Source: Chromatiales bacterium
GTDB taxonomy: Bacteria > Pseudomonadota > Gammaproteobacteria > JAGRCI01
Direction: 5' to 3'
Length of the DNA stretch: 64,000 nucleotides
Assembly: GCA_020445565.1 (NCBI GenBank)
Contig: JAGRGI010000021.1
Coordinates: forward strand, 4,089 to 68,088
This document shows positions 12,414 through 64,000 of this stretch, piece after piece. Under the pieces are notes generated by a model, which did no database searches, was not told the DNA's origin, and saw only the letters and a program-made list of their open reading frames with translations. The translations under genes were made by a program, and so were the position numbers. The stretch's first letter is position 1; the number at the start of each line of letters is the position of its first letter.

Positions 12414-12426
12414 GCCGGGGCGTCAG

Positions 12427-15561: not shown

Positions 15562-15569
15562 TATTCCGC

Positions 15570-15740: not shown

Positions 15741-15919
15741 GGGATTCGTTCTCGCTGAGTGGGTTTGGACAACGGTCGCGCTAGCAGTATAGTCGGTAAA
15801 TAACCTTTGCCGCGGTAAAGTATCCCACTCATCGCGCCGATAGGCTCACAAGCGATGGAACGCAGAACCCATTCAGGCGGGACCTTTGCGCGCCGCCCAT
15901 CCTTGCCCGGGGGGCCACT

Positions 15920-17029: not shown

Positions 17030-17033
17030 GATC

Positions 17034-45185: not shown

Positions 45186-48100
45186 ATGTCCGAGTACCTG
45201 GACACCCTCGCCAGCTACGTCCCCTCCTGGGTGCTCGCCCGCTCCACGCGGGAAACGCATGCCTGTAGCGAACATTTCGAGGCCGTCGTCCTGTTCGCCG
45301 ACATCTCGGGCTTCACCCCCCTGACCGAGCGCTTCGCGGCCGCCGGCCCCGAGGGTGTGGAGGAATTCACCCGCATCCTCAACGATTACTTCGGCCAAGC
45401 CATAGAGCTGCTTGCCGAGCACGGTTTCGAGGCCACCAAATTCGCCGGGGATGCGCTGTTATCGGTGGCGATCTACACGGGCAGTTCGGAATGCAGCACT
45501 ATGCTGGCCCGCCACGCGGACGCGGCCTTGGCGCTGCAAAGGGCCCTGCACGGCTATCAGGCGGGCGCGGACGTAGTGCTTTCCATGAAGATCTGCCTGG
45601 GAATCGGCCCGCTGGTAGGACGATTCCTCGGCGGCCTGAGCAAACGCTGGGAATTCACCATCGCCGGCGAACCCCTGTCCCAGGTGGGCAGGGCCGACAA
45701 GCATGCCCGGCCAGGGGACATCGTACTGTCGCCGCAGGCCAGGCTTTGCCTTGGCACAAAGGCATGGGGAGACACCCTGGAGGCTGGGCATTTGCGTCTG
45801 CTCGGGGTCAAAGACTTCCAACGCGGGCAAGCACTGCCCCTGCCCGTCCCCGATCCGGGAACTGAATCCGTATTAGAAGGTTTCGTCCCCGCCACCGTGC
45901 GCTCGGGGCTGCGCGCCGGCCACGCCGACTGGCTGGGCGAGCTGCGCCAGATCTCGGTGTTGTTCGTCAATCTGCCCGATCTGCACGCCGACACCCCCCT
46001 GAATACGGCCCAGGAGATGTTCACCAGCCTGCAAAGCGCGCTCTACCGTTACGACGGCAGCGTCAATAAACTCAGCGTGGACGATAAGGGGGTTTCTTTG
46101 CTGGCGGTCTTCGGACTGCCACCACGCTCCCACGAAGACGACGCCGAGCGGGCCGTGCTCGCCGCCCTGGCTATGAGCCACAACATTCAGGAGGCGGGTC
46201 TGCGCTGTTCCATCGGCATCACCACCGGCCGGGTCATCGCAACCGCCGTTGGCAACAAACGCCGCCGCGAATACACCATCATGGGCAATGTCGCCAACCT
46301 GGCGGCCAGGCTGATGCAAGCGGCCAATGGCGGGGTTCTTTGCGACGAGCCCACCTGGCGGCAGGCCCGTGATCGCCTTCGTTTCGCGGAGCTGGGCCCG
46401 ATACGGGTAAAAGGCCGCTCCGAGGCGATCCCCATCTATCAGCCCCTACCCCAGTCCGAGTCTCGCGACGACACTGGCCCCCGTTCGGACCAGGGTTCGC
46501 TGGTGGGTCGCGTCGAGCAGATGCACGCCTTGCGCTCGGCCCTGCGTGACTGGCTCGCCAACCCGGATGCCAAGCCGACGCCATTGGTGCTGGAGGGCGA
46601 GGCCGGTATCGGCAAATCCCGCCTGCTGCGGGAACTGGCCGCGCAAGGCCGGGCGCTGGGTGCAAGGGTGGTGCGCGGCGGCGGCGACCCCATTGATGCG
46701 GACACACCCTATCACGGCTGGGCACGAATCTTTGCCACCCTTTTGCATGGCGGATCAGACCATGAAGCGGTAGTGCAGGCACTCACGAACGACCAGGAAT
46801 TGCACAATCTCGCGCCACTTCTGGAAGTCGTCCTGCCATCCAACTGGGGGGACAACGACACCACCGCGAAGCTCCAGGGCGCGGAGCGCGCCCGCGCCAT
46901 TCAGCGGCTGTTGATCGGCATCCTGCGCGAGGCTGCCGGCCAGCAACCCCTGTTGCTGATTCTCGACGACGGCCAGTGGATGGACCCGGCCTCCTGGGAA
47001 TTGCTGCTGGCGATGCACAGAGAACTTCCCCAAGTCCTGATCGCTCTGGCGATTCGCGACGGTACACAACCCGCGGAACCGGTCGCACAGTGGCTCGCGC
47101 AGTCCGTGCCACAACGCATTACACTCGGCCCGCTGCCCAAGGACGAGATTCTGGAGCTGGCCCGCGACCGCCTGGGTTTGAACCAGCTTCCACCCCAAAC
47201 TGAGCGAATCATTCTCGAAAAGGCCGGCGGCAACCCCATGTATTGCGAAGAACTGGCGCGGGGACTGCCCACGGCCACCGATATCGCCGGTATTCTGGAC
47301 TACCTGCAAAAGGCCGAGGTGCCCGACTCGGTACAAGGACTGATCACCGCCCGCCTGGACCGCCTTCCTTCCGAGGCCCAGTTCACCCTCAAAGTCGCCA
47401 GCGTCTTGGGACGGGTCTTCGGCCTGGACGAGCTCAACGCGGTTCACCCGAAACACCCCGCGCAGGGTTACCTTGACGGCATGTGCCGCAGCCGGCTGGC
47501 CCCTGACCTCAAACCCACCGGCGCCCATAGCCCCGGCCCCGTTGGCGTTAGCGGCCACTATCGGTTCCGCAATCCACTCACCCTGGACGTCGCTTACGGC
47601 CTGATGCTGTTTGCGCAACGCCGCCAGCTACACCGCCAAGCCGCCGAGTGGCTAGAAGAGCGTCTGGACGAAGGACACGTCTCCACCTATGCCCTGCTCG
47701 CCCATCACTGGGCGGGCGCAGCCAGCGGAAACAGCCCGGAGGCGCAGGCCCTGGTCAAGGCGGTTAGCTACAGCGAACTGGCGGCCGACGCCGCCCTGCG
47801 CGACTTTGCCAACCGCGAGGCCGTCAGTTTTCTGCAACGGGCGCTGGACCTGCTTTCGCGCCAGGCGGAAAGCCCGGAACGTGACGCCGACGAACTGCGA
47901 CTACTCCTCAAGCTAGGCGGTCCCCTGGTCACCATCTACAGCTACGCCGAGCCGCGGGTGGCGAATGCCTATCGCCGTGCCCGCGAGCTTTGCGATCACC
48001 TCGGCGACCACAGCCGCTTGTTCGATACCCTGCGCGGCTTGTGGCAGTTTCACATCGGCGACTCCGACTACGACAATGCCGCCAGCCTCGCCAGAACCCT

Positions 48101-48995
48101 GTTGGAAATCGCCGAGGCCGACGGCGACCTGGACCGTCGCGCAGAGGCCAACCGCGCCCTGGGCAATACCGTATTCTGGACAGGCGATCTGCAAACCGCG
48201 CGCAAGGCAATGGAGAACGCCGTCGCCCTCGCGGCCCAATCCACCAGCGCCGACCGCACGGACGAATACGGGCAAAACCCCGACGTCGCCAATCACGGCA
48301 TGCTGGCCTGGACGGTCTGTTTAAGCGGCTACCCCAAAGACGCAATTCGCCACGCCGGCCTATCCCTGCAACTCGCCCAGACCTCCGGCCACCCCTTCAG
48401 CCTTGCCTTCGCCTGTGGCGTGCACATGTGGATGTACCGGCTTCTGGATGACGGCATCCAAACCCTGGGCTGGGCCGACCGCACCCTGGAACTCACCGAA
48501 GCCAACGGTTTCCCCTACTTCAGTACCGCCGCCCGCGTCCTGCGCGGTTGGGGCCGGGCCAGAAACGGCGAAGGTAAAGCCGGCCTGGAGGAAGCCCTAT
48601 CCGCCGTCACCGCCTGGCAGGAGATGGGCCAGGAAATCGGTGTGCCGGTATTCCTCTACGCCACCGCAGATGCCGCCCAGCTGGCCGGCGACTCCCAACA
48701 AGCGCTGACACTGCTCCGCCACCCCACCCTCACCGCCCGAACCCACAAAGAACGTTGGTACCTGGCCGATTTGCGGCGAATTGAGGGAGAGTGTCATTGG
48801 CAGTCGGGCGGACGAGAATCAGCCTTGCTGGCTTGGAGAGAGGCTTTGCAGGTAGCGCGGGAGCAGAGCGCGCGCTTGATCGCTTATCGTGTCGCGCATA
48901 TGGCTCGGAATTATGGCCTAAGAGATGATGAAATTGGATTGAGAAAAGCGGATTTGGAGATTCCTCAGCCAATAACAAATCCGCATTTCGACTGA
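45186..48995 (+). CDS. Multidomain signalling protein: two adenylate/guanylate cyclase (CHD) domains + STAND/AAA ATPase + TPR repeats
   Basis: CHD1 reads [16 protein letters not shown] and CHD2 reads [10 protein letters not shown]...[15 protein letters not shown]. Walker A is [16 protein letters not shown], followed by long TPR-like helical repeats, 1269 aa in all. Confidence 0.85.
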
Positions 48996-49292: not shown

Positions 49293-52200
49293 ATGACACA
49301 TGCTCAAGTACTGTTCCGGTTACTCGCCGCCCTGTTGCCAGTTGCTGCCATTTCCCCCGGCCATGCCCAAGTTCAGGACAGTTTTTGCGCATCCGTCAGA
49401 GTCGAGGTCCACCAGGAATTCACCCTGGCCCGCCAAGGGTTTGAAGCCACGATGCGGCTCACCAACGAGCTGCCTGATTCGCCACTTACCGATGTCCATA
49501 TTGAAATCACCTTCAAAGACAGCAGCGGCAACACGGTAACCGCAACGCAAGACCCCAATGGGCAAGACGCCCTGTTTTTCTATCGCCTGCAATTTCACGA
49601 AGGGCTTACGAGCGTCGATGGAAGCGGTGCAATTGCCGCTGACTCCGAGGCGGAACTTCGCTGGTTGATCGTCCCAACGGCGGATGCCGCTGGGAATTCG
49701 CCCAACGGCTCGCCCTACCTGATCGGTGCGGAAGTCAGTTACCGGGTCAATGGCGCAGAAAACACCATCCCAGTCGCGCCGGACTTCATCCAAGTAAAAC
49801 CCGTCCCCCGATTGAGCCTGGACTACTTCATTCCCGAGCAGGTCTTCGGCGACGATCCTTTCACACAGTCAGTAGAAGAAGAACCCATTCCCTTCGAACT
49901 GGGTCTACGCGTTGCCAACACCGGACTGGCAACAGCCTACGCTTTGCAGATCGACTCGGCTCAACCTGAAATTACCGAAAATAAACAAGGGCTTCTGGTC
50001 GATTTTCAACTGCTTGGCGCACGCTTGGGGGACGCACCCGCCACGCCGTCACTTTTCTTGAACCTGGGCGATGTCGAATCACAGGCCGCAATCGTGGCCG
50101 CGTGGACCATGACCACATCGCTCACCGGCCAGTTCAAGCGTTTTACCACCGACATCCGGCACGCAGAAGAATTGGGTGGACAACTCACCTCCCTGATCGA
50201 ATCGCCGCGTACCCATAAACTTGTTCACCGAGTTCAAGTTGATCTCCCCGGCCGCGATGAAATAAGCGACTTCCTGGCGAAAGAATCCCTTGGCGACCTT
50301 CGTGTCTATGAATCGGACGGGACGGAGTTCCCCGTGACCGACGTTTCGGAGAACAGTCAGTTGACGGTCGGTTCGACTGATCCCCTTCAGCAAACCGTCC
50401 AGTTGCAGCTCGTCGGCGGACTGGTCTACGCGCAGATTCCCGATCTGAACGAAGGCGCCAAGACCCTGGTCGGCGTCACCCGTTCCGATGGCAAGGTCCT
50501 GTCGGCTCGAAACGCCTGGCTTTCGAAACGACAAGATGATACGACTCATGAATATACCTACTTTGTCAACATATTCGACAGTGTCGTAGAAGGTCAACCA
50601 ACAGGCGAGTACTTGCTTTCTTTTGCCAACCCCATTGCCTCGGAAGCTACGCCGGAACTCGATGTTCCGAACACGATTGACGCCGTTGACGGCGTATCAC
50701 TGAGTTTTGTCGTCTCGGCATTCGTTGGCGATGGATCCATTCCCTCGCTGGCAATGGAATCCGCGCCGGAAACCGCGCAATTTAGCGACGCAGGGGATGG
50801 CACCGGCGTTTTCGATTGGCCCGTCCCGCCCGGCCGTCTGGGTGATTTTACTGTCATATTCAGTGCGGTCAGCAGAAACGAACGCGCGGAAGGACAGACG
50901 CTCATTCGCGTCCGTAGGCCCGGCGACAGTGATGCCGACTATATGGACGATAGCTGGGAGATGGCGCATTTCGGCAGCCTGGAACAGGACGGGTCGGGAG
51001 ATTGGGACGGTGACGGCATCAGCGACCTTGACGAATACCTGAACCAGACCGACCCGACCACCGCCGACGATCCCTGGTCGGTGATTCGCATTGGCAGCCT
51101 GGAAGTGGGTGACCAGCCTGTGGCAGTACCTGGTGCAACTGCTAACGACGTTGTTCTCTTGGGTCCACCATCGGACCTCACCGCAGACCCTGGCCTTGCA
51201 GTGATCTCGGTCGTAGACGAAACACAGATGGGTGTCCGTATTCGCGAATGGAACTATCTGGACGGCGTAGCCCCGAATCAAGCCATCAGCTATCTCGTCC
51301 TGCCCGTTGGCCGCTATTCTCTAGCGGACGGAACCGTATGGGAGGCGGGATATTTTGATTTGGAAGGCGACAGAAACTGGCAACCACAGTCATTCAAGTT
51401 GGATTTCCCTGAAGAACCGACGGTGTATCTGAGTTCCCAGCCCTCTGCCGGCCCGTTGGCCTCTCTGCGCACCCGCGCGATCAGCCGATCCGGATTCGAA
51501 ACTGCGCAGTTCGTCGAGGAAGCACAGCGTGGATCGACGATTCCGCAGAGCCGGATCCATTACTTGGCGATATGGTCGCCCGGAACGGCTGCCAGCCTCG
51601 TCAGCGCAAACGCAGAATTCGCTTTCAGCAGCCAGCAACTGGACTTGGCATTGCAGCAGCGAGACCTCGATTGGGATCTGACGCAACGCGAAGAAATCTC
51701 CGCCGATGAAGAAACGGACCATGTCGGCGAAACCGTACAGCTACTAAAGATCGGTCAGTACGCTTTCGCCCAGATTGCCAGCGACCGCGAGGACGATCCA
51801 TTGATCCTCTATGCCACGCTGGCGGACCGCGATCAGGACAGCATGGCAGATGCCTTCGAGCGCCGCTACGGTCTCGACCCCCAAGATCCGACAGATGCGG
51901 GCCAAGACCTGGACGGCGATGGTTACTCCAATCTGGCGGAGTACCTTGCGAACACCAATCCCGCCGACGCCTCCAGCCTGCCGGATCAGCTGCGATTGAA
52001 GTTCGGGCAAGTGCAGGCAGGGCAGAGCTGGCGAGAAGTGACTTGGGCACAGACCAATGAGCAGACCGTGCCCCTGGTCTTTTTGGGGCCAGCGACCAAC
52101 AACGACCCCTACCCTGGTATCGCCACGCTTTCCGACACTACCGCCAATGGATTCGCGTATCGCTATCGCAACCTGCACACACGCGAGGGAGAGCACGGCG

Positions 52201-53030
52201 AAGAAACCCTGAGCTACCTCGCCATGGTACCGGGCAGGTACTCCATGCCAGACGGTGCAGTTTGGGAGGCTGGGAGTTTCGACTTGCCCCTGGCGGAGAC
52301 CTGGTACCAGCTAGACTACCTAAGTGCCTTTCCTCAGACGCCGGCACTCTACCTTTCGGTACAGAGCCCCGATTACGGCGGTATCGCCAGGGCCCGTTCG
52401 GTCGAACTGAATACCTTCGAGATTATCATCAATCGGCTGGAACCCGACGCGCCGCTGGAGAATATCCACGTCGCCTACCTCGCGGTCTATCATCCGACAG
52501 GCGCCGGAACGCTTGAGCTTTCCGGTAACACCATAAACTATCAGACCATGACCCAAGATACGAACCACCGAGTATCCGATGTCGGTGGGACACCCTTGCG
52601 ACTCGAAATGCCCGCATCGGTGACAGGAAACATCGAACACGGAATTGAACGTATAGCAGTATTGGATCTGCATTCAGAACAGGGAACCGTATGGCTGGCG
52701 CAGGATACCAGTGCCAGCGACACCGCACCGGCAGTCCCCCGAATTTGGTCTATTGTAGATGGCGATAACGATGGAATTCCCGATCTACAGGAACTTCGCT
52801 ATGGTGCCAATCCCCGCAACGCATCGGATGCTGCGCAGGACTCAGACCACGACGGCTTTCGGAATTTCGCCGAAATTCTCTTCGGTACCGACCCATTCGA
52901 TGCGAATGACTCTCCCGGTCCAAACGACGCCCTGCAAACCATCCCGGAAAACCCGGAAGACTGGTGGAACGAACGCCCCACCAACCCAGGCGTAGTAAAC
53001 CAGAGCGGAAACGACAATGCTGCTCAATAA
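49293..53030 (+). CDS. Large secreted protein (1245 aa) with four EF-hand/TSP3-like calcium-binding loops flanking a duplicated ~170-aa domain of unknown function
   Basis: The start is set at MTHAQVLFRLLAALLPVAAISPGHAQ, a signal peptide. The loops are DWDGDGISDLDEYL, DLDGDGYSNLAEYL, DGDNDGIPDLQEL and DSDHDGFRNFAEIL (pattern DxDxDGxxDxxE). The internal repeat reads ...YLxxVPGRYSxxDGxVWEAGxFDL.... Confidence 0.75.
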   Translation: MTHAQVLFRLLAALLPVAAISPGHAQVQDSFCASVRVEVHQEFTLARQGFEATMRLTNELPDSPLTDVHIEITFKDSSGNTVTATQDPNGQDALFFYRLQFHEGLTSVDGSGAIAADSEAELRWLIVPTADAAGNSPNGSPYLIGAEVSYRVNGAENTIPVAPDFIQVKPVPRLSLDYFIPEQVFGDDPFTQSVEEEPIPFELGLRVANTGLATAYALQIDSAQPEITENKQGLLVDFQLLGARLGDAPATPSLFLNLGDVESQAAIVAAWTMTTSLTGQFKRFTTDIRHAEELGGQLTSLIESPRTHKLVHRVQVDLPGRDEISDFLAKESLGDLRVYESDGTEFPVTDVSENSQLTVGSTDPLQQTVQLQLVGGLVYAQIPDLNEGAKTLVGVTRSDGKVLSARNAWLSKRQDDTTHEYTYFVNIFDSVVEGQPTGEYLLSFANPIASEATPELDVPNTIDAVDGVSLSFVVSAFVGDGSIPSLAMESAPETAQFSDAGDGTGVFDWPVPPGRLGDFTVIFSAVSRNERAEGQTLIRVRRPGDSDADYMDDSWEMAHFGSLEQDGSGDWDGDGISDLDEYLNQTDPTTADDPWSVIRIGSLEVGDQPVAVPGATANDVVLLGPPSDLTADPGLAVISVVDETQMGVRIREWNYLDGVAPNQAISYLVLPVGRYSLADGTVWEAGYFDLEGDRNWQPQSFKLDFPEEPTVYLSSQPSAGPLASLRTRAISRSGFETAQFVEEAQRGSTIPQSRIHYLAIWSPGTAASLVSANAEFAFSSQQLDLALQQRDLDWDLTQREEISADEETDHVGETVQLLKIGQYAFAQIASDREDDPLILYATLADRDQDSMADAFERRYGLDPQDPTDAGQDLDGDGYSNLAEYLANTNPADASSLPDQLRLKFGQVQAGQSWREVTWAQTNEQTVPLVFLGPATNNDPYPGIATLSDTTANGFAYRYRNLHTREGEHGEETLSYLAMVPGRYSMPDGAVWEAGSFDLPLAETWYQLDYLSAFPQTPALYLSVQSPDYGGIARARSVELNTFEIIINRLEPDAPLENIHVAYLAVYHPTGAGTLELSGNTINYQTMTQDTNHRVSDVGGTPLRLEMPASVTGNIEHGIERIAVLDLHSEQGTVWLAQDTSASDTAPAVPRIWSIVDGDNDGIPDLQELRYGANPRNASDAAQDSDHDGFRNFAEILFGTDPFDANDSPGPNDALQTIPENPEDWWNERPTNPGVVNQSGNDNAAQ

Positions 53031-53844
53031 ATACGCTCCCTGGATTGCGGGTGCTCTCATAGTGTGGGCGCAGACCGCTCTCGGCGCGGAATCTGCCGTT
53101 GTCGCGAAGCATTTCCGTTTCACCTACAGCGCAACCAACACCAGTAGCCAAACGATTTCCGAGGCGGATATACGTGTTCCGATTCCGCAACGGAAAACCC
53201 CCTATCAGACCCGAGTCGACGTCAGCTCCAGCCTTCCAATCACGGCCACAGGAGTAGACTGGGCAGAGGTGAGAGTCCCGGCGACTCCCCCCTTCGGGCG
53301 AGTCGATTTCCTATTGAATGTGAGCATGTCCTTCGAACGCGAAGCCAAAGCGGAACCTGCCGACAAAGCCTATTTGCAAGGCGAGCGCTTTATCGAAAAG
53401 GACGACAATAAAATCCGCTCGACAGCCCTGCGACTGATGAAAGGAAACGACACCAGATCGACCCTAAGCAATCTCTATCGCTGGGTAAGAACATCTCTCC
53501 GCCCGCTCGGCTACACGGCAAACCCCCGAGGCGCCCTTCAGGCGTTCCAGTCCCGCCAGGGCGACTGCACGGAATACGCCCTTTTGCTCACGGCGATGGC
53601 CCGGTCCATTGGCATCCCTGCGCGTGTCGCTGAAGGCTATGTCTATCGTGAAAGCGCGAGAATTCGCCCAACCGACTACCACAACTGGGTGGAAGTCCAA
53701 ATTGAAGGCACTTGGTTTCCGGTGGATACCTACGAAGGCAGGTTCCTGGACAGGACAAGCGATTACTTGGTGATGAACTACTGGGGTAGTCAGATAATGC
53801 CCGGCTTTGTCAAATTGAGAGACTGGATTGTACGGCTTGAGTAG
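53017..53844 (+). CDS. Secreted transglutaminase-like cysteine protease (Transglut_core / BTLCP-like; Cys-His-Asp)
   Basis: The signal peptide is MLLNKYAPWIAGALIVWAQTALGA. The core motif is QGDCTEYALLLTAMARSIGIPARVAEGY...DYHNWVEVQIEGTWFPVDTY. His lies at Cys+38 and Asp at His+15. It overlaps the upstream gene by 14 bp. Confidence 0.75.
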   Translation: MLLNKYAPWIAGALIVWAQTALGAESAVVAKHFRFTYSATNTSSQTISEADIRVPIPQRKTPYQTRVDVSSSLPITATGVDWAEVRVPATPPFGRVDFLLNVSMSFEREAKAEPADKAYLQGERFIEKDDNKIRSTALRLMKGNDTRSTLSNLYRWVRTSLRPLGYTANPRGALQAFQSRQGDCTEYALLLTAMARSIGIPARVAEGYVYRESARIRPTDYHNWVEVQIEGTWFPVDTYEGRFLDRTSDYLVMNYWGSQIMPGFVKLRDWIVRLE

Positions 53845-53929: not shown

Positions 53930-56900
53930 ATGGAATTATCCAAACGTGCTCTAGACCTGCACCACATACCCCGTCTAGTGACTTTCTTAGCCTCGCTCAC
54001 GGCAGCCTTGAGCAAAATCACCTCAATCGCGCTGATGGGGTTGTACTCTGCCGTTGCGCAGCCTCCAAATTATGAACCTATTGTCATCTCGGAAGATCGG
54101 GAAATACTTATATCGGATCTGAGTTTTGACGGAAAGATAGTTCACGTCGTCAACGGTGCAATACTAACTTTGCAAGGTGAGCATTATTTTCGCGAATTAC
54201 ACCTTCTCAATGGAGGGAGGTTGACCCACCAAGATGCTAATGATCTTGAGGGACCAACTCCGATAGTACATGCAGATTACCTAGTGGTAGACGTGAATTC
54301 ACGAATAGATGTTTCTGGAAAAGGAATGATCAGCATCGAAGATCCGTCTGGTCCTGATGCATATACCGATCCCTACGTAGGCGCCAGTCATGGAGGGCGC
54401 GGCGGACCATCTAGTGTTCGCAATTCAGATCCCACCTATGGAGACTATCGAAAGCCGCGCACAGTTGGCCACTCCTCCAATCTCTATGAGCGTGGTGGCG
54501 GAGCAATTCATTTGCAAATCGAAGACCTCGTGGTAGACGGTGAAATTTCGGCGGACGGCGCAACCCCGTCTTGGGGCGGTGCCAGCGGAGGGTCAATCTG
54601 GATCCAATGCAATCGGCTCAGCGGTACAGGGACAATTCATGCAAACGGCAGCAAAAAGACCTATGGCAGCGGAAGCGGCGGCGGAGGAGGGAGAATTGCT
54701 CTAGAATATAGAGTATTGGACAACTTCAACATTTCAACTCAAGTTCAGTCCTACGGCGGAAACAGGCGCAGTTCGCCGTACGTTTCCGGCAGCGCGGGTA
54801 CCGTATATGTGCGGAACGTAGAATCGGCTCATGGCGAACTCCGAATTGACAATACACCTCGCGGCATTGACAGCATTCCTTTCGAGCTTGCGGGAAACGT
54901 CGACGACGTTGTAGTAGTTGGCAATGCGTTATTAGCAATACCTGAACACACGTACCTATATGGAATTAGGGGTACTAAATCAGGAGGAATATTGAATTTA
55001 GTCGGTGATCTAGAAACCTTCGAAGATCGCTTGCATGTCGATGGGTACACACTCCAAATGCATGGTGGGACCCGTTTCTGGAGTGAGGTCCTAATTTCAA
55101 ATGGCGGCATACTAACGCACTCCCCTGCCAAAAGCAGCGATGATCCAGGTCTTGAGCTACACGCTGGATATCTGGAAATTGACCAAAACTCAGCAATACG
55201 TCTAGACGGAATGGGTTCGGAAGGAGACGTTACGCAGCGAACAGGAGCAAGTCATGGCGGCCGTGGCGGTGCCGAATCCTCCAATAGCTCGCCGGCCGTT
55301 TATGGCGACCATCTTCAGCCAAACACTCACGGACAAGGCATTACCACGAACAGTAGTCAACGAGGAGGAGGAAAGCTGCACTTAGTTGTCGACGACTTGC
55401 TGTTGGATGGAACGATTTCTGCCAATGGCGAGGCAGGTCTTTACCGCTGGCCGAGTGGCGGAGGCGGAGCGAGCGGAGGTTCCATTTGGATAGAAGCAGG
55501 CACAATCGCAGGAATTGGAAAAATTTACGCCAATGGCGGCAGCTCCTACGACTATCGCGACACCGAATACCCAACCGGTGGCGGAGCTGGCGGAAGAATT
55601 GCCGTTTACTTCGATAATGCCCAAGATAATTTCCTCCTGAATCATATTTTTGCGATGGGAGGGTACGGATACCGCGGTGGCCAACAGGGCGGAGCGGGAT
55701 CGGTTTATTACCGTGAAAACTCCGCGGAGTTCGGGACCATCAAGGCGGACAACGGCGGTATAGCGTCAATGGCACCACTGGAACTACACGGTCAGATTAA
55801 TGCTCGTCTCATACTCAATTATGCGTGGGTTCGTCTGACCGAAGATACCCACCTTCGCGGTATCATTGGGGGCAACAAAGGAAGTTTGACTACATTCGGC
55901 AAGTTGACGTTAGACTCAGACAATCTGCTGGTTGATAACTACTATCTAGAATTGCAGGGGATTGTTGATCAGTTTCGTGAAATAGTCCTCGTGAATGGAG
56001 GCGCATTGGGACATCGGATAGCTCTAGCACAGAGCGGCCCCGGACTCACATTGGTCGCGGATCGAGTGGAGATAGACGAGACCTCCCGAATCAACGTCAG
56101 TGGCAAGGGTTTGAGGGAGTCATATGGGACGGTCGTCGAAGGATCTGCTGGTGCAAGTCATGGAGGTATCGGCGGCGCTGCGAATGGAGTGGAGTCCAAT
56201 ATCCCCTACGGAAACGATCATTCCCCCATTACTTTCGGGCAAGGTGCGTCGGATACTTACGCGCGCAGAGGAGGGGGCGCAATCAAGTTGGTTGCGGAAG
56301 AGGTTATAGTTGACGGAAAGATCATTGCAAACGGAAATAATGGTGCTTATACATATGGTGAGACTCCCGGCGGCGGCGCAAGCGGCGGATCAGTATGGAT
56401 TCAAACCGATAAAATTAGCGGTACTGGATATATAAGCGCGAATGGAGGCTACGGCGACGGTCCGACTAAGCCCGCGGGCGGTGGTAGTGGCGGTCGAGTT
56501 GCGATCTACTACCGCGATGCCACAACTTTTAATATCAAGGATAACATACAAGTCACTGGTGGCGCAGGCAGGTTTGACGGCCTAGCGGGTTCCGACGGAT
56601 CAATATATTTGGAAAATACGTCGGAACTTCTAAAGATTTCAAATGTTAGCCCCAACTATGTAGTCAATGCACCAGTAGTGGGAATTTCTATCACTTTTAA
56701 TCGAAGCTTCAACCAACAAGGTGCAATTGATCAGTACATACAAATTGGCGCCCCCAATGGAGAGGAGGTTTTGTATAGTGTTGTATTTCCAAAAGAAGAA
56801 GAGGTCGTCCTACAGCCGCCACAGCCACTTGCACACCCAGGCACCTATATCGTCTCGGTTTCTCCCGGCATTACAACCCCCGCCGGCACGCCCATGGACC

Positions 56901-59900
56901 AGGATGGCGACACCATACCTGGAGAACCGACGGACGATCATTATGTATTCACCTTCACTATTGACGCCGGACCGCCCGGAACGGTTACTCCCGCAGTTGC
57001 AGCTATCGCAGACGGCTCCAAAGCAACACTCGATTGGACAAGTTACGACCAAGCAGCCAACGGCGGCGACATCCAGTCGTTCCGTATCTACCGCTCTTCC
57101 CAGACATTTACAAATCCCACGTCAACAACACTGGTAGAGGAACTTAGCGCCGGCACAACGAGCTACCAACTCAGCGGACTACAACCCGGCGTCCCCACTT
57201 ACGTTGCGGTGGTCGCAGTCGATGAACTTGGCAACGCCCTGGACGAAGTGTCTCCTGTTGTTGTCATCACCCAAGACCAGATTCCCCCCGGAGCCATCTC
57301 CAACCCCCAATCCATCTCCGGCCTCGGGTCGATCCACTTCCAATGGAATCCACCTACCGAGAACGCTGCCGACCTGGCAAGCTATCGCGTTCGTACCGAT
57401 GCGGGAGAACTCATCGCGACGCTGAGTTCCGGGCAAACTGAGCATCTGATCAACGGTTTGGCCCCTGGCAGCGTGCGGGTTGTGCGGGTGTCTGCCGTCG
57501 ACCATTCCGGAAATGAGTCGGTTGCGACGCGCATGGAAGCGGTTACCTGGCTACCCAATCCAAGCGCGGTGCAGGCCAGCCCCGGCAACGGTTCCGCCGA
57601 AGTGCAGTGGCAGCCAGTGGCGCCGGCGCAGTGGATCTCCAGCTATCGCGTCTATGTGTCGCAGACGCCATTCGACAACGTGTCGGGGATGACACAATTC
57701 ACCCCGTTCACCAGTTCTCCGGCAACGCTCAGCGGACTCACCAACGAGGTCGACCATTACGTCGCCATCGTTACCGAGAACACCAGCGGTGGATTCAATC
57801 CAGAGGTAAGCAGCGTACGTGTCCGTCCGTCAACGGACCTGATCGCGCCGCAGATCGACGATGCGCGCTTCGACACCCAGCCGATCTCTGCCGGGCAGAA
57901 CTTTACCCATTCCGGTTTGCTTTCCGTCACCGCGTCGGACAACAAGGCCGTTGTACGCGTGGAAGCCTGGCTCGGCGAGAATCCCGTGGGTATTACACAA
58001 TCTTCCGATGCACAGGGTCGGTGGTCGATTCCGCTGAGTCTGGACGGTCTCAGCGACGGCCCTGCCCTGCTGCGCCTCAGCGCCTTCGACATTGTTGGTA
58101 ACTCTGCTTCCGTTGAGTTCCCCATTTCCATCGCACTGGCACCACCCAATCCCCCCATCCTGAGCGCTCCGGCGACGGGTACGGTGACGGCGGACGCCTC
58201 AATCCAGGTTCAAGGGCTGGCCGCTCAAGGCGCGGAAGTCAGGCTGCTGGTAAACGAGCTTACCACCACGCCCTGGCTTGCCCTGGGTACGAACGGCCAG
58301 TTCACTGCATCCGTGCCCTTGACCTCGGGAGACAATCGAATCACCGCCCGTGTACGCAACCGCGCGGGTGAGAGCCTTCCCAGCGCTGCGATCATCATCG
58401 AGCGCGACGATAGCCGTCCGGGCGCCCCCCTCTCCCTGGTGGCCGACCCTGGCGAAGCTGGCACGGTGCAGTTGCGGTGGGTGGCACCGGCCGACGGAAC
58501 GGCAGTGGGCTATGACCTCTATCGGGCAGGCTCGCCATTCGCCAACGTAACCGACGCCATTCGAGTAAATGCAAATCGCATTACCGAAAACCGTTTCGAC
58601 GACCTTCCCGTGGAAGATGGGATCTACTACTACCGGGTAGTGGCCTACAACAGTCTGGGCACCCCCAGCGAACCCTCCAACGCCGTCTCCGCCACGGCCG
58701 ACGGTACGCTCCCGACGGTTACCACCGTTGCCTTTACCTCGGCCGGCGCACCCTACGATTCCGCGGGTATGCGCTACGGCGCAGGCAAGATCGACGTGAA
58801 TATCGAGCTGAGCGAACCCCTGGAAGCGCCGCCCTACCTGAATCTCGCCCTCGACGGATTTGGCGTGATCCCCATCGCGGCCGTGGCTTCCGACCCCACC
58901 CACTACCTTGGCAAGATCGATTCCCTGCCGCAAGGGCTGACCGGAACCGCCAGCCTCCAGTTTTCTGGACGGGACCTCGTTGGCAATCGTGGCTCGGCTA
59001 TCCTTGCCCCGGCGCAGATTCAGGTCGACACCCGTGGCCCCAGAGGAACCTCCCTGACCCTCATCCCAGCCAGCCCGATACGCAACTACGAAGACGCACC
59101 CGTCACCGTGAGCATTGATCTGATTCTGGACGAGGCCCCTGCCAGCGGCACCACCCCCCAGCTTGGCTACAACCTCTTTCCGGGCAGCAATGATCCCCTC
59201 GGCGAGATACCCCTGTTGCCCATCTCGGCGACCCATTGGCAGGGCGAACTCACCCTGCCGGGCAGCGCCGGAAAAGACACTCCACAGATACTTGGATTCT
59301 CGCTCCTGGTTCAAGACGACCTGGGCAACCAAGGAACCGAACTGGCCAACTCGGGCGGCTGGCAAATCTATCAGGACGAATTGCCCCCCTTGGACACTCC
59401 CCAAGGATTCAGCGCCAAGGCCCTGCCTGCGGGCAAGGTAGAATTACGCTGGAATGCCGTGGAAGGTGCGCTGGCCTATCAACTCTATCGCCAATCGGCG
59501 GCAGGGTCGGCGGATGCCTTCCAACGGGTAGAGGGCGAACTCACCCTTATCGATCAACCCGGTAACGACGGACCCTGGAGCTACAGCGTAGCCAGTATCC
59601 GCAGCGCCAATGGCCAAGAATCGACGAGTGCGCAAAGCCCGGCCATTACCGTGCAGGTGGACTCGCAAGCGCCGGACGCACCGCAACAGTTCTCGGTACT
59701 TCTGCATCCTGCCGGCATCGTCGGCCAGTGGCAAACCCCCGCCGCCACGGACATTGACCACTATCGCTATTATCGTGCTGCTGAGCAAACCGGCCCTGGC
59801 GTCAACGCTGATTTGGTCCTGGACCAGATCGTCGTACAACAGGCAGTGGACTCCCGCCCCGATCCCACGAAACCGGTCTATTTCGTCACCGCTGTCGACA

Positions 59901-62866
59901 AGGCCGGAAATGAGTCCTCTCCCTCGAACTATGGCTATCTCAACACCGATCTGCTCTTGCCCGTGCAAAGCTTGCATGTGGAACGCATCAACGGTTCGGC
60001 GCCGTCGCTTTCCTGGCAGCACAACGGCAACCATCTGGCCGGCTACAACCTGTATCTGGGCAACCCCGGTCAACGTATAAAGCTCAACGATGCGCCCTAC
60101 GCACCATCGCAGTGGACGGACCTGGGGTACTCCGGCGGAGAGCGCCGCTACACCATCGAAGCAGTAGACGCCAACGGCGAAGCCAGTCCGGCACGCAGCC
60201 TGCTGCTACCCGAGCTTGTCGTAACCGCCCACGCGGATCAAACCGTCCGCCGCGGCTTGATGAACCAAAGGCTCTATAGGGTAGAAAACCGCGGCGCCTA
60301 CGCCGTGCAGGGAATTCACCTAGAACTGATGCTCGCCGACCGCATCCATCGCTCAGAAATCTTCTCCCTGCTCGCCGGGGAGACAGCGGACATCCCCCTG
60401 ACCATCGGCGGTTACCCTGAATTGCCAGACACCGCGGCGGCCCAACGCAGTGTCGTAGTCGAACCGGAACAAGGTCTGAAAGTGACGCTCACCCGCGCGG
60501 AGACCGTCGACGTGCGCGACGGCGGTCTGGGAATCGAACTACAGGCTCAGAACCTGCTGCGCGGTGCCATCGGGCAGGCCAGCTTCGTGATTGAAAATTT
60601 TGGCAACGCGGAGCTTCAGGTGGTCCTCGCCCGCAACAACGGTGCGAACGACAGTAACGACGTCAGCCTGCGACTGCTGGACGATGAATCCAACCCGCTG
60701 ACTGTCCAAGCAATTCGCCTCGCGTTGGGCGACGCAATCACCACCGACGCCAATGGCATCAGCAGTGCGCGAATCGCCCCCGGCCAGCGCTACCGCTCAC
60801 CGTGGATCGATTTCCCCATTCCCGCGGCCGCACCACAGTCCGTCGAATTACGGCTAGACATAACACGGGTTCACCACGAATTAGGCACCGAACGCGCGGT
60901 CACTCTCTCCGGAGGCACCACCCGCATCCCGCTGAATCTTGTCGACACGGAATACCGCGGCCATCTCGATACCGCCACACCGGAAGTCTCCTTCGGCGAA
61001 CTGCCCATCGTACTCACCGGCCGAGCCTTGCGCCGCACGGACGATGCGCCCATGGCCTATGTTCCACTGACACTGATATTGGAACGGGGAGGACTGGAAG
61101 AACGCATCCAGATCGAAACCGATGCGGCCGGGCGATTCTCGCACCGCTACACCCCGAATCCGGCCGCCTACGGACGCTACCGGGTCTCAGTACTACATCC
61201 GGACCTGACCGAACGGCCGGAGCATGGCGCCTTCGTCCTGCAACATCTGGACATTCAACCCAGGGGCATCGATGTCGACATACCCCGTCACGATCAGCGC
61301 CAACTACCTATCACCCTGGTGGCCGGCGAAGGTACGGAATTGGCCCAGGTGCATCTCGCACTTCGGGCAGAAGACCAAGCCGGCCAAACGCTGCCAGCCG
61401 GCATCGAATTCAACGCCGCTCCCGCCACCCCCATGGCCTCCGGGCAGCGCCTGACCCTGCGACCCACCCTGGTCGCGGACGACACCGCGCCCGAAGCGGG
61501 CACATTGATACTGGCAGTGCTCGATGGTCAGGCCCCCCTGGGCGCCATCACGGTGAACTACCATTTCGGCGAAGCCCTGCCAAGGCTCAGCGCCACGCCA
61601 CTATCCCTGGAACTGGGCCTGACGGGTGACGAGCAACGGATCGAAACGGTTCGATTCAGCAACACCGGCCTTGCCACCCTCGAAGGGCTGACCTTGGAAC
61701 TGCGCCATGCCGACGGCAGCCCCGCCCCGGCATGGACGGGGCTTACCGTGCCCGCGCAAAGCGGCAATCTGGCCGTCGGCGAGAGCCGCGAAGTGGGCGT
61801 GCGAATCCAGCCGGCCGGACTCGTCCCCAGTGGCCAGTACGTCCTGCGCCTGCGGGCTGAGGGCGCCAATCACCCGCCATTGGAAATCCCGCTCACCGTG
61901 AGGATCTCGGAGTCCGGTCGCGGCGATCTGGAATTCAAACTGGCCGATATGTATACCGGCCTGCGCGATCCCGACACCAAAGAGATCCACCAAGGTTTGG
62001 CGGGTGCGGAGATCGAAATACGTCACGACACCCTCACCGGCGAAGTACACCGCAAACTCAGCGATTCACTTGGAGAAGCACGCTTCGAAAACTTACCCGC
62101 CGGTCGCTACCACTACCGGGTCAGCGCCCCTCGCCACCTCGACGCTACCGGTTTGCTGCGGGTGCAAGCCGAACTTCTCACCCAACAGCCCCTGTTCCTG
62201 GACTACCGCCTGGTCAGCGTCGAATGGCAGGTTCGGGAGATCGTGCTGGAAGACCGCTACGACCTGGTGCTCAACCTGGACTTCGAGGCCGATCTACCCG
62301 CCGCCGTGGTCGTAGTCGAACCCAGCAGCGTTCCCCTGCCCCTAATGCGTGCCGGCGAATCCTTCCAGGGAGAACTGAAGATCACCAATCACGGACTGGT
62401 CCGTGCGGACGAGCTGGAACTGGCCCCGCCGCCGGACAGCGACCTGCTGCGTTTCGAGTTCGGCCCCCTGCCCGACACCCTCGGCGCCAAGCAGAGCCTG
62501 ACCATCCCCTACCGCATCACTGCCTTGCAGGACTTCGAGCCGGATGGAGAGGCAACTGGTGCGGGCTGCTATACCGAGCGGCCTTGTAGCGAGCTGCGAT
62601 GCAGCTACGTGTGTGCCAACGGAGATCGACGCCCGCTGGCGACGCCCATGTGCTGGGTACGCACCATCGGTACCTGTTCCGGCGGCGCGACGGCAAGCGG
62701 TGGCGATACTATTCAATGGGGCCACGTCAGCGGCGATGCCTACACGCCGCCCTGGGTCAGCCCACCGGGCGATGGCCAGGCGGAATCCGAGCCCGATCCG
62801 CTGCCAGCCTGCCGCGTGGTGGGCAAGATCTGCGAGAAGACCGGCGACAGCGGCGGCTTGTTTTAA
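53930..62866 (+). CDS. Giant surface protein (2978 aa): three ~340-aa Gly-rich beta-helix-like repeats, Ig-like and ~10 FN3 domains, CARDB-like and CarboxypepD_reg-like domains, Cys-rich C-terminus
   Basis: Each repeat recurs with GASHGG(R/I)GG, RGGG(A/K)I(H/K)L, GG(G)ASGGS(I/V)WI and GGG(G/A/S)GGR(I/V)A(L/V/I)(E/Y)(Y/F). The FN3 signatures include FRIYRSS...YVAVVAVDELGN, YDLYRAG...YYYRVVAYNSLG and YRYYRAA...VTAVDKAGNES. CARDB-like motifs include VENRGAYAVQGIHLEL. The C-terminal Cys cluster is CYTERPCSELRCSYVCANG...CWVRTIGTCSGG... Confidence 0.85.
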   Translation: MELSKRALDLHHIPRLVTFLASLTAALSKITSIALMGLYSAVAQPPNYEPIVISEDREILISDLSFDGKIVHVVNGAILTLQGEHYFRELHLLNGGRLTHQDANDLEGPTPIVHADYLVVDVNSRIDVSGKGMISIEDPSGPDAYTDPYVGASHGGRGGPSSVRNSDPTYGDYRKPRTVGHSSNLYERGGGAIHLQIEDLVVDGEISADGATPSWGGASGGSIWIQCNRLSGTGTIHANGSKKTYGSGSGGGGGRIALEYRVLDNFNISTQVQSYGGNRRSSPYVSGSAGTVYVRNVESAHGELRIDNTPRGIDSIPFELAGNVDDVVVVGNALLAIPEHTYLYGIRGTKSGGILNLVGDLETFEDRLHVDGYTLQMHGGTRFWSEVLISNGGILTHSPAKSSDDPGLELHAGYLEIDQNSAIRLDGMGSEGDVTQRTGASHGGRGGAESSNSSPAVYGDHLQPNTHGQGITTNSSQRGGGKLHLVVDDLLLDGTISANGEAGLYRWPSGGGGASGGSIWIEAGTIAGIGKIYANGGSSYDYRDTEYPTGGGAGGRIAVYFDNAQDNFLLNHIFAMGGYGYRGGQQGGAGSVYYRENSAEFGTIKADNGGIASMAPLELHGQINARLILNYAWVRLTEDTHLRGIIGGNKGSLTTFGKLTLDSDNLLVDNYYLELQGIVDQFREIVLVNGGALGHRIALAQSGPGLTLVADRVEIDETSRINVSGKGLRESYGTVVEGSAGASHGGIGGAANGVESNIPYGNDHSPITFGQGASDTYARRGGGAIKLVAEEVIVDGKIIANGNNGAYTYGETPGGGASGGSVWIQTDKISGTGYISANGGYGDGPTKPAGGGSGGRVAIYYRDATTFNIKDNIQVTGGAGRFDGLAGSDGSIYLENTSELLKISNVSPNYVVNAPVVGISITFNRSFNQQGAIDQYIQIGAPNGEEVLYSVVFPKEEEVVLQPPQPLAHPGTYIVSVSPGITTPAGTPMDQDGDTIPGEPTDDHYVFTFTIDAGPPGTVTPAVAAIADGSKATLDWTSYDQAANGGDIQSFRIYRSSQTFTNPTSTTLVEELSAGTTSYQLSGLQPGVPTYVAVVAVDELGNALDEVSPVVVITQDQIPPGAISNPQSISGLGSIHFQWNPPTENAADLASYRVRTDAGELIATLSSGQTEHLINGLAPGSVRVVRVSAVDHSGNESVATRMEAVTWLPNPSAVQASPGNGSAEVQWQPVAPAQWISSYRVYVSQTPFDNVSGMTQFTPFTSSPATLSGLTNEVDHYVAIVTENTSGGFNPEVSSVRVRPSTDLIAPQIDDARFDTQPISAGQNFTHSGLLSVTASDNKAVVRVEAWLGENPVGITQSSDAQGRWSIPLSLDGLSDGPALLRLSAFDIVGNSASVEFPISIALAPPNPPILSAPATGTVTADASIQVQGLAAQGAEVRLLVNELTTTPWLALGTNGQFTASVPLTSGDNRITARVRNRAGESLPSAAIIIERDDSRPGAPLSLVADPGEAGTVQLRWVAPADGTAVGYDLYRAGSPFANVTDAIRVNANRITENRFDDLPVEDGIYYYRVVAYNSLGTPSEPSNAVSATADGTLPTVTTVAFTSAGAPYDSAGMRYGAGKIDVNIELSEPLEAPPYLNLALDGFGVIPIAAVASDPTHYLGKIDSLPQGLTGTASLQFSGRDLVGNRGSAILAPAQIQVDTRGPRGTSLTLIPASPIRNYEDAPVTVSIDLILDEAPASGTTPQLGYNLFPGSNDPLGEIPLLPISATHWQGELTLPGSAGKDTPQILGFSLLVQDDLGNQGTELANSGGWQIYQDELPPLDTPQGFSAKALPAGKVELRWNAVEGALAYQLYRQSAAGSADAFQRVEGELTLIDQPGNDGPWSYSVASIRSANGQESTSAQSPAITVQVDSQAPDAPQQFSVLLHPAGIVGQWQTPAATDIDHYRYYRAAEQTGPGVNADLVLDQIVVQQAVDSRPDPTKPVYFVTAVDKAGNESSPSNYGYLNTDLLLPVQSLHVERINGSAPSLSWQHNGNHLAGYNLYLGNPGQRIKLNDAPYAPSQWTDLGYSGGERRYTIEAVDANGEASPARSLLLPELVVTAHADQTVRRGLMNQRLYRVENRGAYAVQGIHLELMLADRIHRSEIFSLLAGETADIPLTIGGYPELPDTAAAQRSVVVEPEQGLKVTLTRAETVDVRDGGLGIELQAQNLLRGAIGQASFVIENFGNAELQVVLARNNGANDSNDVSLRLLDDESNPLTVQAIRLALGDAITTDANGISSARIAPGQRYRSPWIDFPIPAAAPQSVELRLDITRVHHELGTERAVTLSGGTTRIPLNLVDTEYRGHLDTATPEVSFGELPIVLTGRALRRTDDAPMAYVPLTLILERGGLEERIQIETDAAGRFSHRYTPNPAAYGRYRVSVLHPDLTERPEHGAFVLQHLDIQPRGIDVDIPRHDQRQLPITLVAGEGTELAQVHLALRAEDQAGQTLPAGIEFNAAPATPMASGQRLTLRPTLVADDTAPEAGTLILAVLDGQAPLGAITVNYHFGEALPRLSATPLSLELGLTGDEQRIETVRFSNTGLATLEGLTLELRHADGSPAPAWTGLTVPAQSGNLAVGESREVGVRIQPAGLVPSGQYVLRLRAEGANHPPLEIPLTVRISESGRGDLEFKLADMYTGLRDPDTKEIHQGLAGAEIEIRHDTLTGEVHRKLSDSLGEARFENLPAGRYHYRVSAPRHLDATGLLRVQAELLTQQPLFLDYRLVSVEWQVREIVLEDRYDLVLNLDFEADLPAAVVVVEPSSVPLPLMRAGESFQGELKITNHGLVRADELELAPPPDSDLLRFEFGPLPDTLGAKQSLTIPYRITALQDFEPDGEATGAGCYTERPCSELRCSYVCANGDRRPLATPMCWVRTIGTCSGGATASGGDTIQWGHVSGDAYTPPWVSPPGDGQAESEPDPLPACRVVGKICEKTGDSGGLF

Positions 62867-62890: not shown

Positions 62891-64000
62891 ATGGACACGA
62901 AGCGTTTGCACGTTCTGTTGCTGATCGTGCTGTTGACCCCCTGCTGGGCCTGGGCTGGCCTCACCGACGGCGGCCCCGACCACCGCCACGGCCTCTACCA
63001 CCATGCCGAGACCGATCTGAGCCTCCCCTACTTCGGCGCCCAGATCCGCGTCACCCGCCAGTGGAACGCCGACCACTGGGACTTCAACCGCAATTGGGAC
63101 GACCTGATCCTCGAAGGTCCAGCCGATGAACCGGAGCGCATTCTGCGCGCCGGCGAATACGTCTACGAGCGGCGCGGCTTCGCCAGCGACAACCGCCCCC
63201 TGTACCGCGCCGTCGACAGCCCCGGCAAGAAGCTCTATGCCACCGATAGCGGCTGGCGCTGGGAGGACCTGCAAGGCCAGTGGATCGATTACGACCCCCA
63301 GGGCCGCCTGCTGCGCTTTGGTGACCGCAACGACAACCGCCTGCGGGCCGAGCGCAACGAGCAAGGCCGGATCGGCAGTCTGCACGACGCCAGCGACCAG
63401 ATCTGGCTCAGCCTTGCCTACGATACCGGCGGCCATCTCATCGAAGCCACCGACCGCCACGGCCGCAGCGTCGCCTATCACTGGCAGGGCGCCGACCTCA
63501 CCGGCGTCACCGATGCCCGCGGGCAGGATTGGGCCTACGGCTATGTCACCTTGCTGGAAAAACGCTATCTGGCCAGCCTGACCAACCCCTTGGGCGAGAG
63601 CCTGAGCCTGGACTACGTGGAACTGCCCGGCGGCCTGCAAACGATCTGCGGCACCGGCGAGCCCAGCGGTCATTGGATCGTCGAGGAAGTGGAAGACCCG
63701 GAAACCGGTGAGCTGGTGCAACGCGAGCGCTATGTGCTCGACGAGGTGGAAGGCCGTTCCGACTGCATCACCTACACCGCCCCACCGAGCGTGCAAATGA
63801 TCAAGATGCGCTGGTCCGACGGCCCGTACCGCAGCCTGCGCTATTACTATCAGGACACCGAGCGGCGCTACATCCTCATCGAGCGCAGCAGCGACGGCGC
63901 CGAACGTGAGCGCTGGTATGACCTGCGCGGGCGCGTGGTGCGCGACGTGCGCGCCGGTCAGACCGTCAGCCAGCAGCGTATCGCCAGCGACGCCATGCGC
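62891..64000 (+). CDS. RHS / YD-repeat protein with Sec (possibly lipoprotein) signal; runs off the window
   Basis: My own translation from ATG 62891 is MDTKRLHVLLLIVLLTPCWAWAG.... The YD repeats are YDPQGRLLRFGDRNDNRL..., AYDTGGHLIEATDRHGRSVAYHW and TDARGQDWAYGY. It is not in the ORF track because no stop lies in the window. Confidence 0.8.
   Translation, partial: MDTKRLHVLLLIVLLTPCWAWAGLTDGGPDHRHGLYHHAETDLSLPYFGAQIRVTRQWNADHWDFNRNWDDLILEGPADEPERILRAGEYVYERRGFASDNRPLYRAVDSPGKKLYATDSGWRWEDLQGQWIDYDPQGRLLRFGDRNDNRLRAERNEQGRIGSLHDASDQIWLSLAYDTGGHLIEATDRHGRSVAYHWQGADLTGVTDARGQDWAYGYVTLLEKRYLASLTNPLGESLSLDYVELPGGLQTICGTGEPSGHWIVEEVEDPETGELVQRERYVLDEVEGRSDCITYTAPPSVQMIKMRWSDGPYRSLRYYYQDTERRYILIERSSDGAERERWYDLRGRVVRDVRAGQTVSQQRIASDAMR

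Follow-up and report, generated by a model that had tools for sequence, protein, structure and literature searches.

A three-copy glycine-rich beta-solenoid module as the candidate exchangeable head of a split, Sec-exported giant RHS protein in a Chromatiales bacterium

Beta-solenoid modules in giant surface proteins are already known in kind, as are Sec-exported RHS proteins with an Ig/FN3 stalk. The giant adhesin LapA is served by a dedicated transglutaminase-like cysteine protease, LapG, and in right-handed beta-helices of the PbH1 type a single coil comprises ~22-25 residues. Bacterial teneurin-like proteins, as described by Jackson et al. 2019 (PMC6425310), consist of Ig/FN/CARDB/CarboxypepD_reg repeats, followed by a transthyretin-like (TTR) domain and then by a YD shell. 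RHS polymorphic toxins of the Sec/type II secretion system (T2SS) type that carry transglutaminase-fold and bacterial-Ig domains are described by Zhang et al. 2012 (PMC3482391). Here we report the analysis of a 2978-amino-acid (aa) open reading frame (ORF), hereafter the giant, located at positions 53930-62866 on the plus strand of a 64,000-nucleotide (nt) stretch of contig JAGRGI010000021.1 from a Chromatiales bacterium (assembly GCA_020445565.1), hereafter the window. The ORF has the position and length given in a preliminary description of this sequence; it begins at an ATG, and an AGGAAA Shine-Dalgarno-like sequence lies 8 nt 5' of it. Its N-terminal part contains three tandem copies of a Gly-rich module, and we propose with moderate confidence that this module is an interchangeable head, probably one that binds a target, on the carrier half of a giant RHS protein that is split and exported by Sec.

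The giant and the teneurin-like or Sec-exported RHS toxins have in common an N-terminal array of Ig/FN3/CARDB/CarboxypepD_reg domains, a TTR-like domain, a YD/RHS shell, export by a signal peptide, and a link to the transglutaminase fold. At the window locus, the YD/RHS shell lies downstream of the stalk, and the TTR-like domain lies ahead of the shell. The locus differs from these systems in having two exported polypeptides instead of one. Moreover, the transglutaminase-like protein has a gene of its own here and its Cys-His-Asp triad is intact, whereas in the teneurin-like and Sec-exported RHS toxins it is an inactive N-terminal domain. A Gly-rich solenoid head is not described in the available portions of PMC6425310 or PMC3482391. 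No Pfam match to an NHL propeller was found in the giant, in the RHS fragment encoded downstream of it, or in the RHS proteins of two related loci (L013 and L016). Because neither an FN-plug nor an NHL propeller could be shown, we do not class the giant as a strict member of the teneurin-like family.

The association with RHS proteins was assessed by scanning metagenome contigs with an alignment of the giant's C-terminus, seeded on the motif TNHGL(I/V)RAD. The scan yielded 80 loci, of which 64 continue for 1.5 kb or more downstream of the homology to the C-terminus. In 62 of these 64 loci the C-terminus is followed by an RHS homologue, starting within ~0.04-0.9 kb of the homology end in 60 of the 62 and lying in the same ORF as the giant in 34. 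In Ca. Parabeggiatoa (L062), the C-terminus of the giant (residues 1883-2978) runs in frame into an RHS protein, and an RHS gene also follows the giant in the genome loci L008 and L015. The complete RHS partners encoded in L013 and L016 consist of many RHS repeats, a PF03527 core, and a tail of ~200 aa. The core of the giant (residues ~1100-2900) is conserved in many Proteobacteria and Desulfobacterota. Judged from gene order and fusions, its conserved C-terminus shows a near-obligate linkage to an RHS protein. Given this linkage and fusion in related loci, the giant of the window would correspond to the N-terminal half of what is a single chain in about half of them, and the RHS half at the window locus has evidently gained its own predicted signal peptide.

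The same counts bear on the alternative that the giant acts on its own, as an adhesin or a protein of the biofilm matrix, with a head that perhaps self-associates like Ag43-type beta-helices, and that the RHS neighbor is functionally unrelated. A signal peptide, a solenoid head, and a long Ig/FN3 stalk do form a typical adhesin layout, and most proteins of the module family have no RHS part. However, an RHS protein after the conserved C-terminus in nearly all loci examined, more than half of them fused, and the in-frame fusion in Ca. Parabeggiatoa make this alternative quite unlikely.

The N-terminus of the giant differs between lineages. Orthologues in Rubrivivax (L015) and in L058 match residues ~1120-2900 only and have other N-termini without the module, which is also found in none of the 43 metagenomic orthologues with complete N-termini. 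The heads of orthologues comprise three to four classical Beta_helix/NosD modules (L090, L106), an RCC1 propeller with Calx-beta (L124), or unassigned ~350-aa domains, while the Thiomargarita protein (L012) starts with another Asn/Gly-rich repeat and that of L056 with Calx-beta-like repeats. Codon composition also changes within the giant. GC content at third codon positions (GC3) is 0.37-0.56 through codon ~1100, a low-GC3 head segment at 53930..57230 (+), and 0.64-0.78 thereafter, a jump from about 0.48 to about 0.72; in the neighboring genes of the window it is 0.63-0.86. The position of the break is the start of the orthologue-conserved core (query residues ~1000-1300). The head is variable between orthologues, with a compositional break at the head/core boundary, and the break points to a head acquired by recombination from a lower-GC donor. 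Neither this break nor the transglutaminase-like and RHS genes on the two sides of the giant figured in the preliminary description.

The three module copies, R1 (residues 38-306, 54041..54847), R2 (residues 325-606, 54902..55747), and R3 (residues 621-904, 55790..56641), all on the plus strand, were evaluated with a hidden Markov model (HMM) based on 28 repeat units taken from other proteins, from which the three copies of the window were excluded. This non-self HMM finds exactly three domains in the giant, at residues 17-306 (234 bits), 327-606 (189 bits), and 623-903 (194 bits), with E-values of 1e-74 to 6e-60 and HMM positions ~10-285 covered; the top score among 200 composition-matched shuffles was 4.8 bits. 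In pairwise blastp comparisons, the copies are 38-42% identical at the amino acid level over 220-290 aligned residues (E 1e-23 to 9e-54). The recurrent motifs are GASHGGxGG, at residues 151, 439, and 741; RGGG(AI/KL), at 188, 478, and 780; GGASGGS(I/V)WI, at 216, 512, and 815; and GGGxGGR(I/V)A, at 550 and 850, with the variant GGGGGRIA at 250-257 in R1. The copies end in GTVYVRN, GSVYYREN, and GSIYLEN. Motif recurrence, blastp, and the non-self HMM scores against shuffles thus bear out the three motif-bearing Gly-rich repeats of the preliminary description, two details of which need correction. The repeat length is not ~340 aa, as the period is 288 and 302 aa and the unit about 270-300 aa, and the motif-to-motif spacing is similar rather than identical across the copies, at 37/39/39 and 28/34/35 residues. 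The view that the repeats are diverged at the DNA level and did not arise by recent duplication holds, as the codon-aligned nucleotide identity between copies is 46-49%, falling to 29-32% at third positions; the three modules are ancient duplications. Comparison of R1, R2, and R3 with the repeats of orthologues gave 33-40% identity for all pairs, so that positional orthology is marginal.

The fold of the module was predicted with AlphaFold2 (AF2) for R3 using a 31-sequence alignment, where model residues 1-306 correspond to protein residues 600-905. The model is all-beta, with short strands of the solenoid type, and has a predicted local distance difference test score (pLDDT) of 86.3 and a predicted template modeling score (pTM) of 0.86. 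Within the C-terminal half of the module, three coils of about 35 residues are visible in the sequence, RGGGAIKLVAEEVIVDGKIIANG..., GGASGGSVWIQTDKISGTGYISANGG..., and GGGSGGRVAIYY.... Each such coil is modeled as a turn of GGxGG, a strand of ~10 residues, a second turn (G-x-G), a short strand (I-x-A-N-G), and an arc rich in Gly. In the model, DSSP assigns no secondary structure to the ~60 residues around GASHGG...YG....P...GxG, which have a pLDDT of 80-97 by block apart from one 10-residue block at 69. A Foldseek search of the PDB with the R3 model returned nothing significant. The best match was VacA p55 (E 0.39, template modeling (TM) score 0.19), and the weak matches (E≥0.39, TM≤0.3), which further include HpmA, EtpA, GlmU/LpxD, polygalacturonases, lyases, and tailspikes, are all beta-helix proteins. 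Together with the all-beta solenoid model, they agree with the beta-helix-like nature that had been ascribed to the repeats. The module is accordingly a predicted beta-solenoid without a demonstrable solved relative.

Right-handed beta-helices, including PF13229/NosD (PF05048) proteins, the pectate-lyase fold, and the passengers of autotransporters and two-partner secretion systems, are beta-solenoids, as the module is predicted to be, and in orthologous giant RHS proteins PF13229/NosD modules occupy the same N-terminal head position as the Gly-rich module. PbH1-type models, however, gave no sequence match at E≤1 to the giant or to 31 single repeat units, and the module coils, at ~35 residues with Gly-rich arcs, differ from the ~22-25-residue coils of PbH1. 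The shared head position is also what recommends the alternative of an enzymatic head, a depolymerase or lyase of glycans built on a beta-helix like those of pectate lyases and phage tailspikes, which would not simply bind but clear a way through the capsule or matrix of the target; among the weak Foldseek matches there are indeed polygalacturonases, lyases of pectate and alginate, and a tailspike colanidase. We consider such an activity unlikely, since all these matches lie at E≥0.39 and TM≤0.3, neither Pfam nor the PDB provides a sequence match, and the invariant alignment columns are glycines and one Arg (the R of GGR(I/V)A), with no conserved Asp/Glu/Lys/His cluster. The near-invariant columns are Gly, Tyr, Pro, Ser, and Ala. 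As read from the alignment, this conservation pattern is a structural signature, not a catalytic one.

One repeat motif had been likened to the GGAI motif of Pmp-type beta-helices, which raises the question of kinship with the chlamydial Pmp proteins (PF02415). The giant does share with Pmp proteins two GGAI and one GGAL tetrapeptides and the beta-helix prediction. Kinship with the Pmp repeat was rejected, as only three GGA[ILV] and one FxxN occur in 905 residues and no PF02415 (Chlam_PMP) match was found at E≤1. Pfam also gave no match to an autotransporter beta-barrel in the giant, the C-terminus of which consists of the TTR-like domain, a beta-sandwich, and a Cys-rich tail. In a separate Foldseek search of the predicted structures in BFVD, the R3 model matched, with probability 1.0 and TM ~0.4, Gly-rich 'collagen-like' proteins of Pandoravirus and Orpheovirus and a PA14 protein of a Bathycoccus virus; the module fold may, on these models, occur in giant viruses too.

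Sequence catalogues were searched for the module with the following outcome. Within residues 1-900 of the giant, Pfam had no match at E≤1; to the repeat it gave none at E≤1 among the 31 single repeat units and none at E≤0.01 in five further multi-copy members. One family member (P0140) has a sub-threshold match to DUF5649; this candidate identity was rejected, as the match falls on generic cap coils. No NCBIfam family above its cut-off covers the module, and a profile search of all PDB sequences detected no relative. The repeats therefore belong, as had been thought, to an unfamiliar family that no Pfam, NCBIfam, or PDB sequence model covers, and a clean mapping onto a characterized domain, named beforehand as the result that would speak against the preliminary description, was not found. 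A tblastn search with R3 against phage and plasmid collections gave no match, although its low-complexity filter may mask Gly runs, and a pattern scan of GTDB species genomes detected no close orthologue of the whole giant.

Among named families, similarity was confined to NCBIfam NF047640 (gliding_AgmC_N), the N-terminal domain of AgmC from Myxococcus adventurous gliding, which matches the giant at E 2e-12 in three stretches at profile positions ~299-404 of 412; two further family members match NF047640 likewise. The last ~100-170 positions of the profile align to the module coils RGGGAI ... GGSGGSxW ... GGGGGRIA, and AgmC probably contains one divergent module copy. The reading that would follow, an AgmC-like surface protein of a gliding-motility apparatus, is highly improbable. 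The match reaches 46.7 bits against a cut-off of 275 and involves only the last third of the profile, leaving the first two thirds unmatched, while the architecture and gene context of AgmC and the giant differ, the window encoding a flagellar hook protein and a chemoreceptor and no gliding genes.

Although absent from these catalogues, the module is widespread. The 616 word-indexed homologues, typically with 2-5 tandem copies each, come from Gammaproteobacteria, Desulfobacterota, Cyanobacteria, Planctomycetota, Verrucomicrobiota, Myxococcota, Patescibacteria, Chloroflexota, Actinomycetota, and other taxa. An exhaustive profile search of 50%-identity clusters returned 15,610 at E≤1e-3 and 5,984 at E≤1e-30, with proteins of up to about 7000 aa and as many as 13 matched stretches. 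The top 149 representatives have a median of seven copies (range 4-13 in the top matches) and a median period of 274 aa, and in about 60% of the top representatives the first copy lies within the first 5% of the protein. Domain partners in homologues include LamG, Ig, cadherin, dockerin, TIG, He_PIG, and TSP3. By these sequence comparisons, the module belongs to a family of tandem modules of extracellular proteins that is both very large and uncurated; the giant conforms to this family with three tandem copies in a predicted extracellular protein with a putative signal peptide. Defining this family would annotate a large slice of the 'dark' giant surface proteins. In one 1167-aa family member (P0024), YD/RHS repeats precede three Gly-rich modules in a single polypeptide, the reverse of the order in the window. 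Another member (P0104, 884 aa, E 1e-34) comes from a 144-Mb scaffold and has been annotated as a hypothetical protein of the bivalve Solemya velum; it could reflect horizontal transfer from the gammaproteobacterial symbionts of this animal, or contamination.

In the mechanism that we propose, the ORF would encode one half of a giant RHS (YD-repeat) protein split in two, namely the carrier, which is non-toxic and is exported in a Sec-dependent manner. The first ~905 residues would form a rigid, exchangeable target-binding tip, exchangeable because the corresponding position in orthologues is taken by other heads and because the codon composition of the head is foreign. The FN3/Ig/CARDB-like stalk would act as a spacer that holds the head away from the RHS shell, while the TTR-like domain, the beta-sandwich, and the Cys-rich tail would dock to the RHS shell or continue into it. 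The transglutaminase-like protease and a TSP3-repeat protein encoded upstream of the giant may be accessory, taking part in the processing, anchoring, or release of the complex; this role is proposed because of the analogy with LapG/LapA and with the transglutaminase domains discussed in PMC3482391. Exchange of the tip between lineages is what would be expected if it determined specificity in toxin systems aimed at other bacteria or at a host. If the proposal is true, the way in which Sec-exported RHS proteins are targeted, poorly understood next to delivery by type VI secretion systems (T6SS) or Tc, opens to experiment.

Several observations weigh against this proposal. Only six of the 269 proteins examined from the module family (A1) have RHS-like segments and three have giant-core segments, about 2-3%; with so few, the module appears to be a general extracellular building block that is not specific to RHS proteins. 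The binding role of the head is deduced only from its position, its partner domains, and a conservation that is not of a catalytic type. An AF2 model of the C-terminal 419 aa, computed on eight sequences, is poor (pLDDT 64, pTM 0.34), and among its top 50 Foldseek matches this low-confidence model has generic Ig-like arrays only and no teneurin FN-plug/TTR. The RHS gene is visible only to position 64000, such that the RHS core, the toxin tail, and any immunity gene would lie beyond the window, and no outer-membrane translocator or anchor was identified within the window.

The module family, its use as an exchangeable head, and the four-gene cluster in which the giant lies, with a transglutaminase-like protease taken to be active and a conserved TSP3-repeat protein, appear to be undescribed in the resources searched. 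A further-reaching version of the proposal, which we put forward tentatively and regard as doubtful, is that the module is a distinct solenoid of ~35-residue coils with a Gly-arc face and no solved relative, belonging to one of the largest uncatalogued extracellular families, and that it serves here as the exchangeable, receptor-binding head of an undescribed four-gene, Sec-dependent display or delivery system for RHS toxins that is independent of T6SS and Tc.

The remaining architecture of the giant begins with a putative Sec signal peptide at residues 1-43 (53930..54058, +), read from the sequence and from the N-termini of homologues, which has a basic n-region, a long hydrophobic stretch, and the putative cleavage motif AVA|Q; the signal peptide of many homologues leads straight into the first module. 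Behind the head lies the stalk of beta-sandwich domains (56681..60211, +), defined by domain matches. It consists of a Big_5-like domain (residues 918-991), three FN3 domains (1012-1300), Big_13/Big_7 (1321-1399), a Glucodextran_B-like domain (1412-1483), one FN3 domain (1493-1590), and three further FN3 domains (1816-2094). A second beta-sandwich array follows at residues 2094-2650 (60209..61879, +), including a CARDB-like part (residues 2094-2158) and an NPCBM_assoc/CARDB-like part (residues 2573-2644), both sub-threshold; the Pfam score for CARDB is 19.9 bits against a threshold of 22.7. The TTR-like (CarboxypepD_reg) domain at residues 2688-2745 (61991..62164, +) scores 43.3-45 bits, above the Pfam threshold of 32.3, and its only matches in a PDB profile search are prealbumin-like adhesin domains, those of SdrD/BcpA. 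The array of Ig, FN3, and TTR domains that had been described downstream of the repeats is therefore real; of its particulars, the count of about ten FN3 domains reduces to seven detectable ones, and the CARDB assignment is sub-threshold only. A conserved post-TTR beta-sandwich with the motifs FLDY..VEW, DVPAAVV, and TNHGL(I/V)RAD spans residues 2756-2876 (62195..62557, +). The Cys-rich C-terminal tail (residues 2877-2978, 62558..62863, +) contains eight of the nine cysteines of the giant and passes straight into RHS repeats in many orthologues.

The giant is the third of four co-directional, closely packed genes, all of whose products have N-terminal signal-like sequences. The first encodes an exported 1306-aa TSP3-repeat protein (49110/49293..53030, +), the start of which is probably M62 of the listed ORF. 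The second, overlapping the first by 14 nt, encodes an exported 275-aa transglutaminase-like cysteine protease (53017..53844, +) with the catalytic Cys in GDCTEY, the His in DYH, and a conserved Asp; this protein is identical to MCB1874886.1, which comes from the metagenome-assembled genome of a Chromatiales bacterium. The fourth is the RHS gene (62891..64000, +), which starts 24 nt past the stop codon of the giant, encodes a signal-like N-terminus followed by RHS/YD repeats, and is cut by the window end; its RHS_repeat match scores 26.2 bits against a cut-off of 22, and it weakly matches the Rhs protein 7q97. The pairing of a giant repetitive surface protein with an exported transglutaminase-fold cysteine protease encoded beside it is reminiscent of LapA/LapG. 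Unlike in that system, the protease belongs to family PF01841 and is not LapG-type, and no type I secretion system or RTX signal was found in the giant, the N-terminus of which is a predicted Sec signal instead.

Related loci show the same gene association. Among the five closest repeat-bearing homologues looked up, four have a Transglut_core gene directly upstream (L006 from Marinicella pacifica, L007, L008, and L009). A scan of GTDB genomes with a transglutaminase alignment identified 80 loci, 46 of which contain at least one other cluster component; the giant core is present in 11 and the Gly-rich module in 14, many contigs being too short to show more. A full-length orthologue, matching residues 11-2965 with 38% identity, was found in an uncultured gammaproteobacterium (L029), and the head also occurs in L077, L084 (Marinicella), L086 (Hahella sp. 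NBU794), L051, and L038. The N-terminal ~590 aa of the TSP3 protein, for which neither Pfam nor the PDB gave a match, are 38-44% identical in 35 of 80 related loci. Its C-terminal half contains an internal duplication with two copies of GRYS(L/M)(A/P)DG(T/A)VWEAG(Y/S)FDL, both of them flanked by TSP3 repeats. No T2SS genes were found in the window; such genes are present near L008 and L009, and in L008 a secretin, GspL, and GspM are encoded ~8 kb upstream of the giant ORFs. In that locus, the giant orthologue appears as four consecutive ORFs (9899-18691) that keep the order of the domains, and an RHS fragment comes next; this arrangement may represent a natural split, a pseudogene, or an assembly frameshift. 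The transglutaminase-like copy of L008 has Tyr in place of the catalytic His.

Scans for promoters and terminators in the window gave no more sites than expected by chance, and no tRNA or Rfam matches were found in it. The rest of the window looks like ordinary chromosome, including cysS, flgE, a methyl-accepting chemotaxis protein gene, histidine kinase genes, and a Tn3 transposase gene. Adjoining the cluster on its 5' side, positions 45186-48995 (+) encode a 1269-aa protein with an adenylate/guanylate cyclase domain and an AAA_16/NACHT-like STAND ATPase, which could be a regulator. The Tn3-family transposase gene (2370-5336, minus strand) is complete, with a DDE_Tnp_Tn3 match of 529 bits and a DUF4158 domain, and a gene encoding a MerR-methyltransferase fusion lies near it at 6928-8109.

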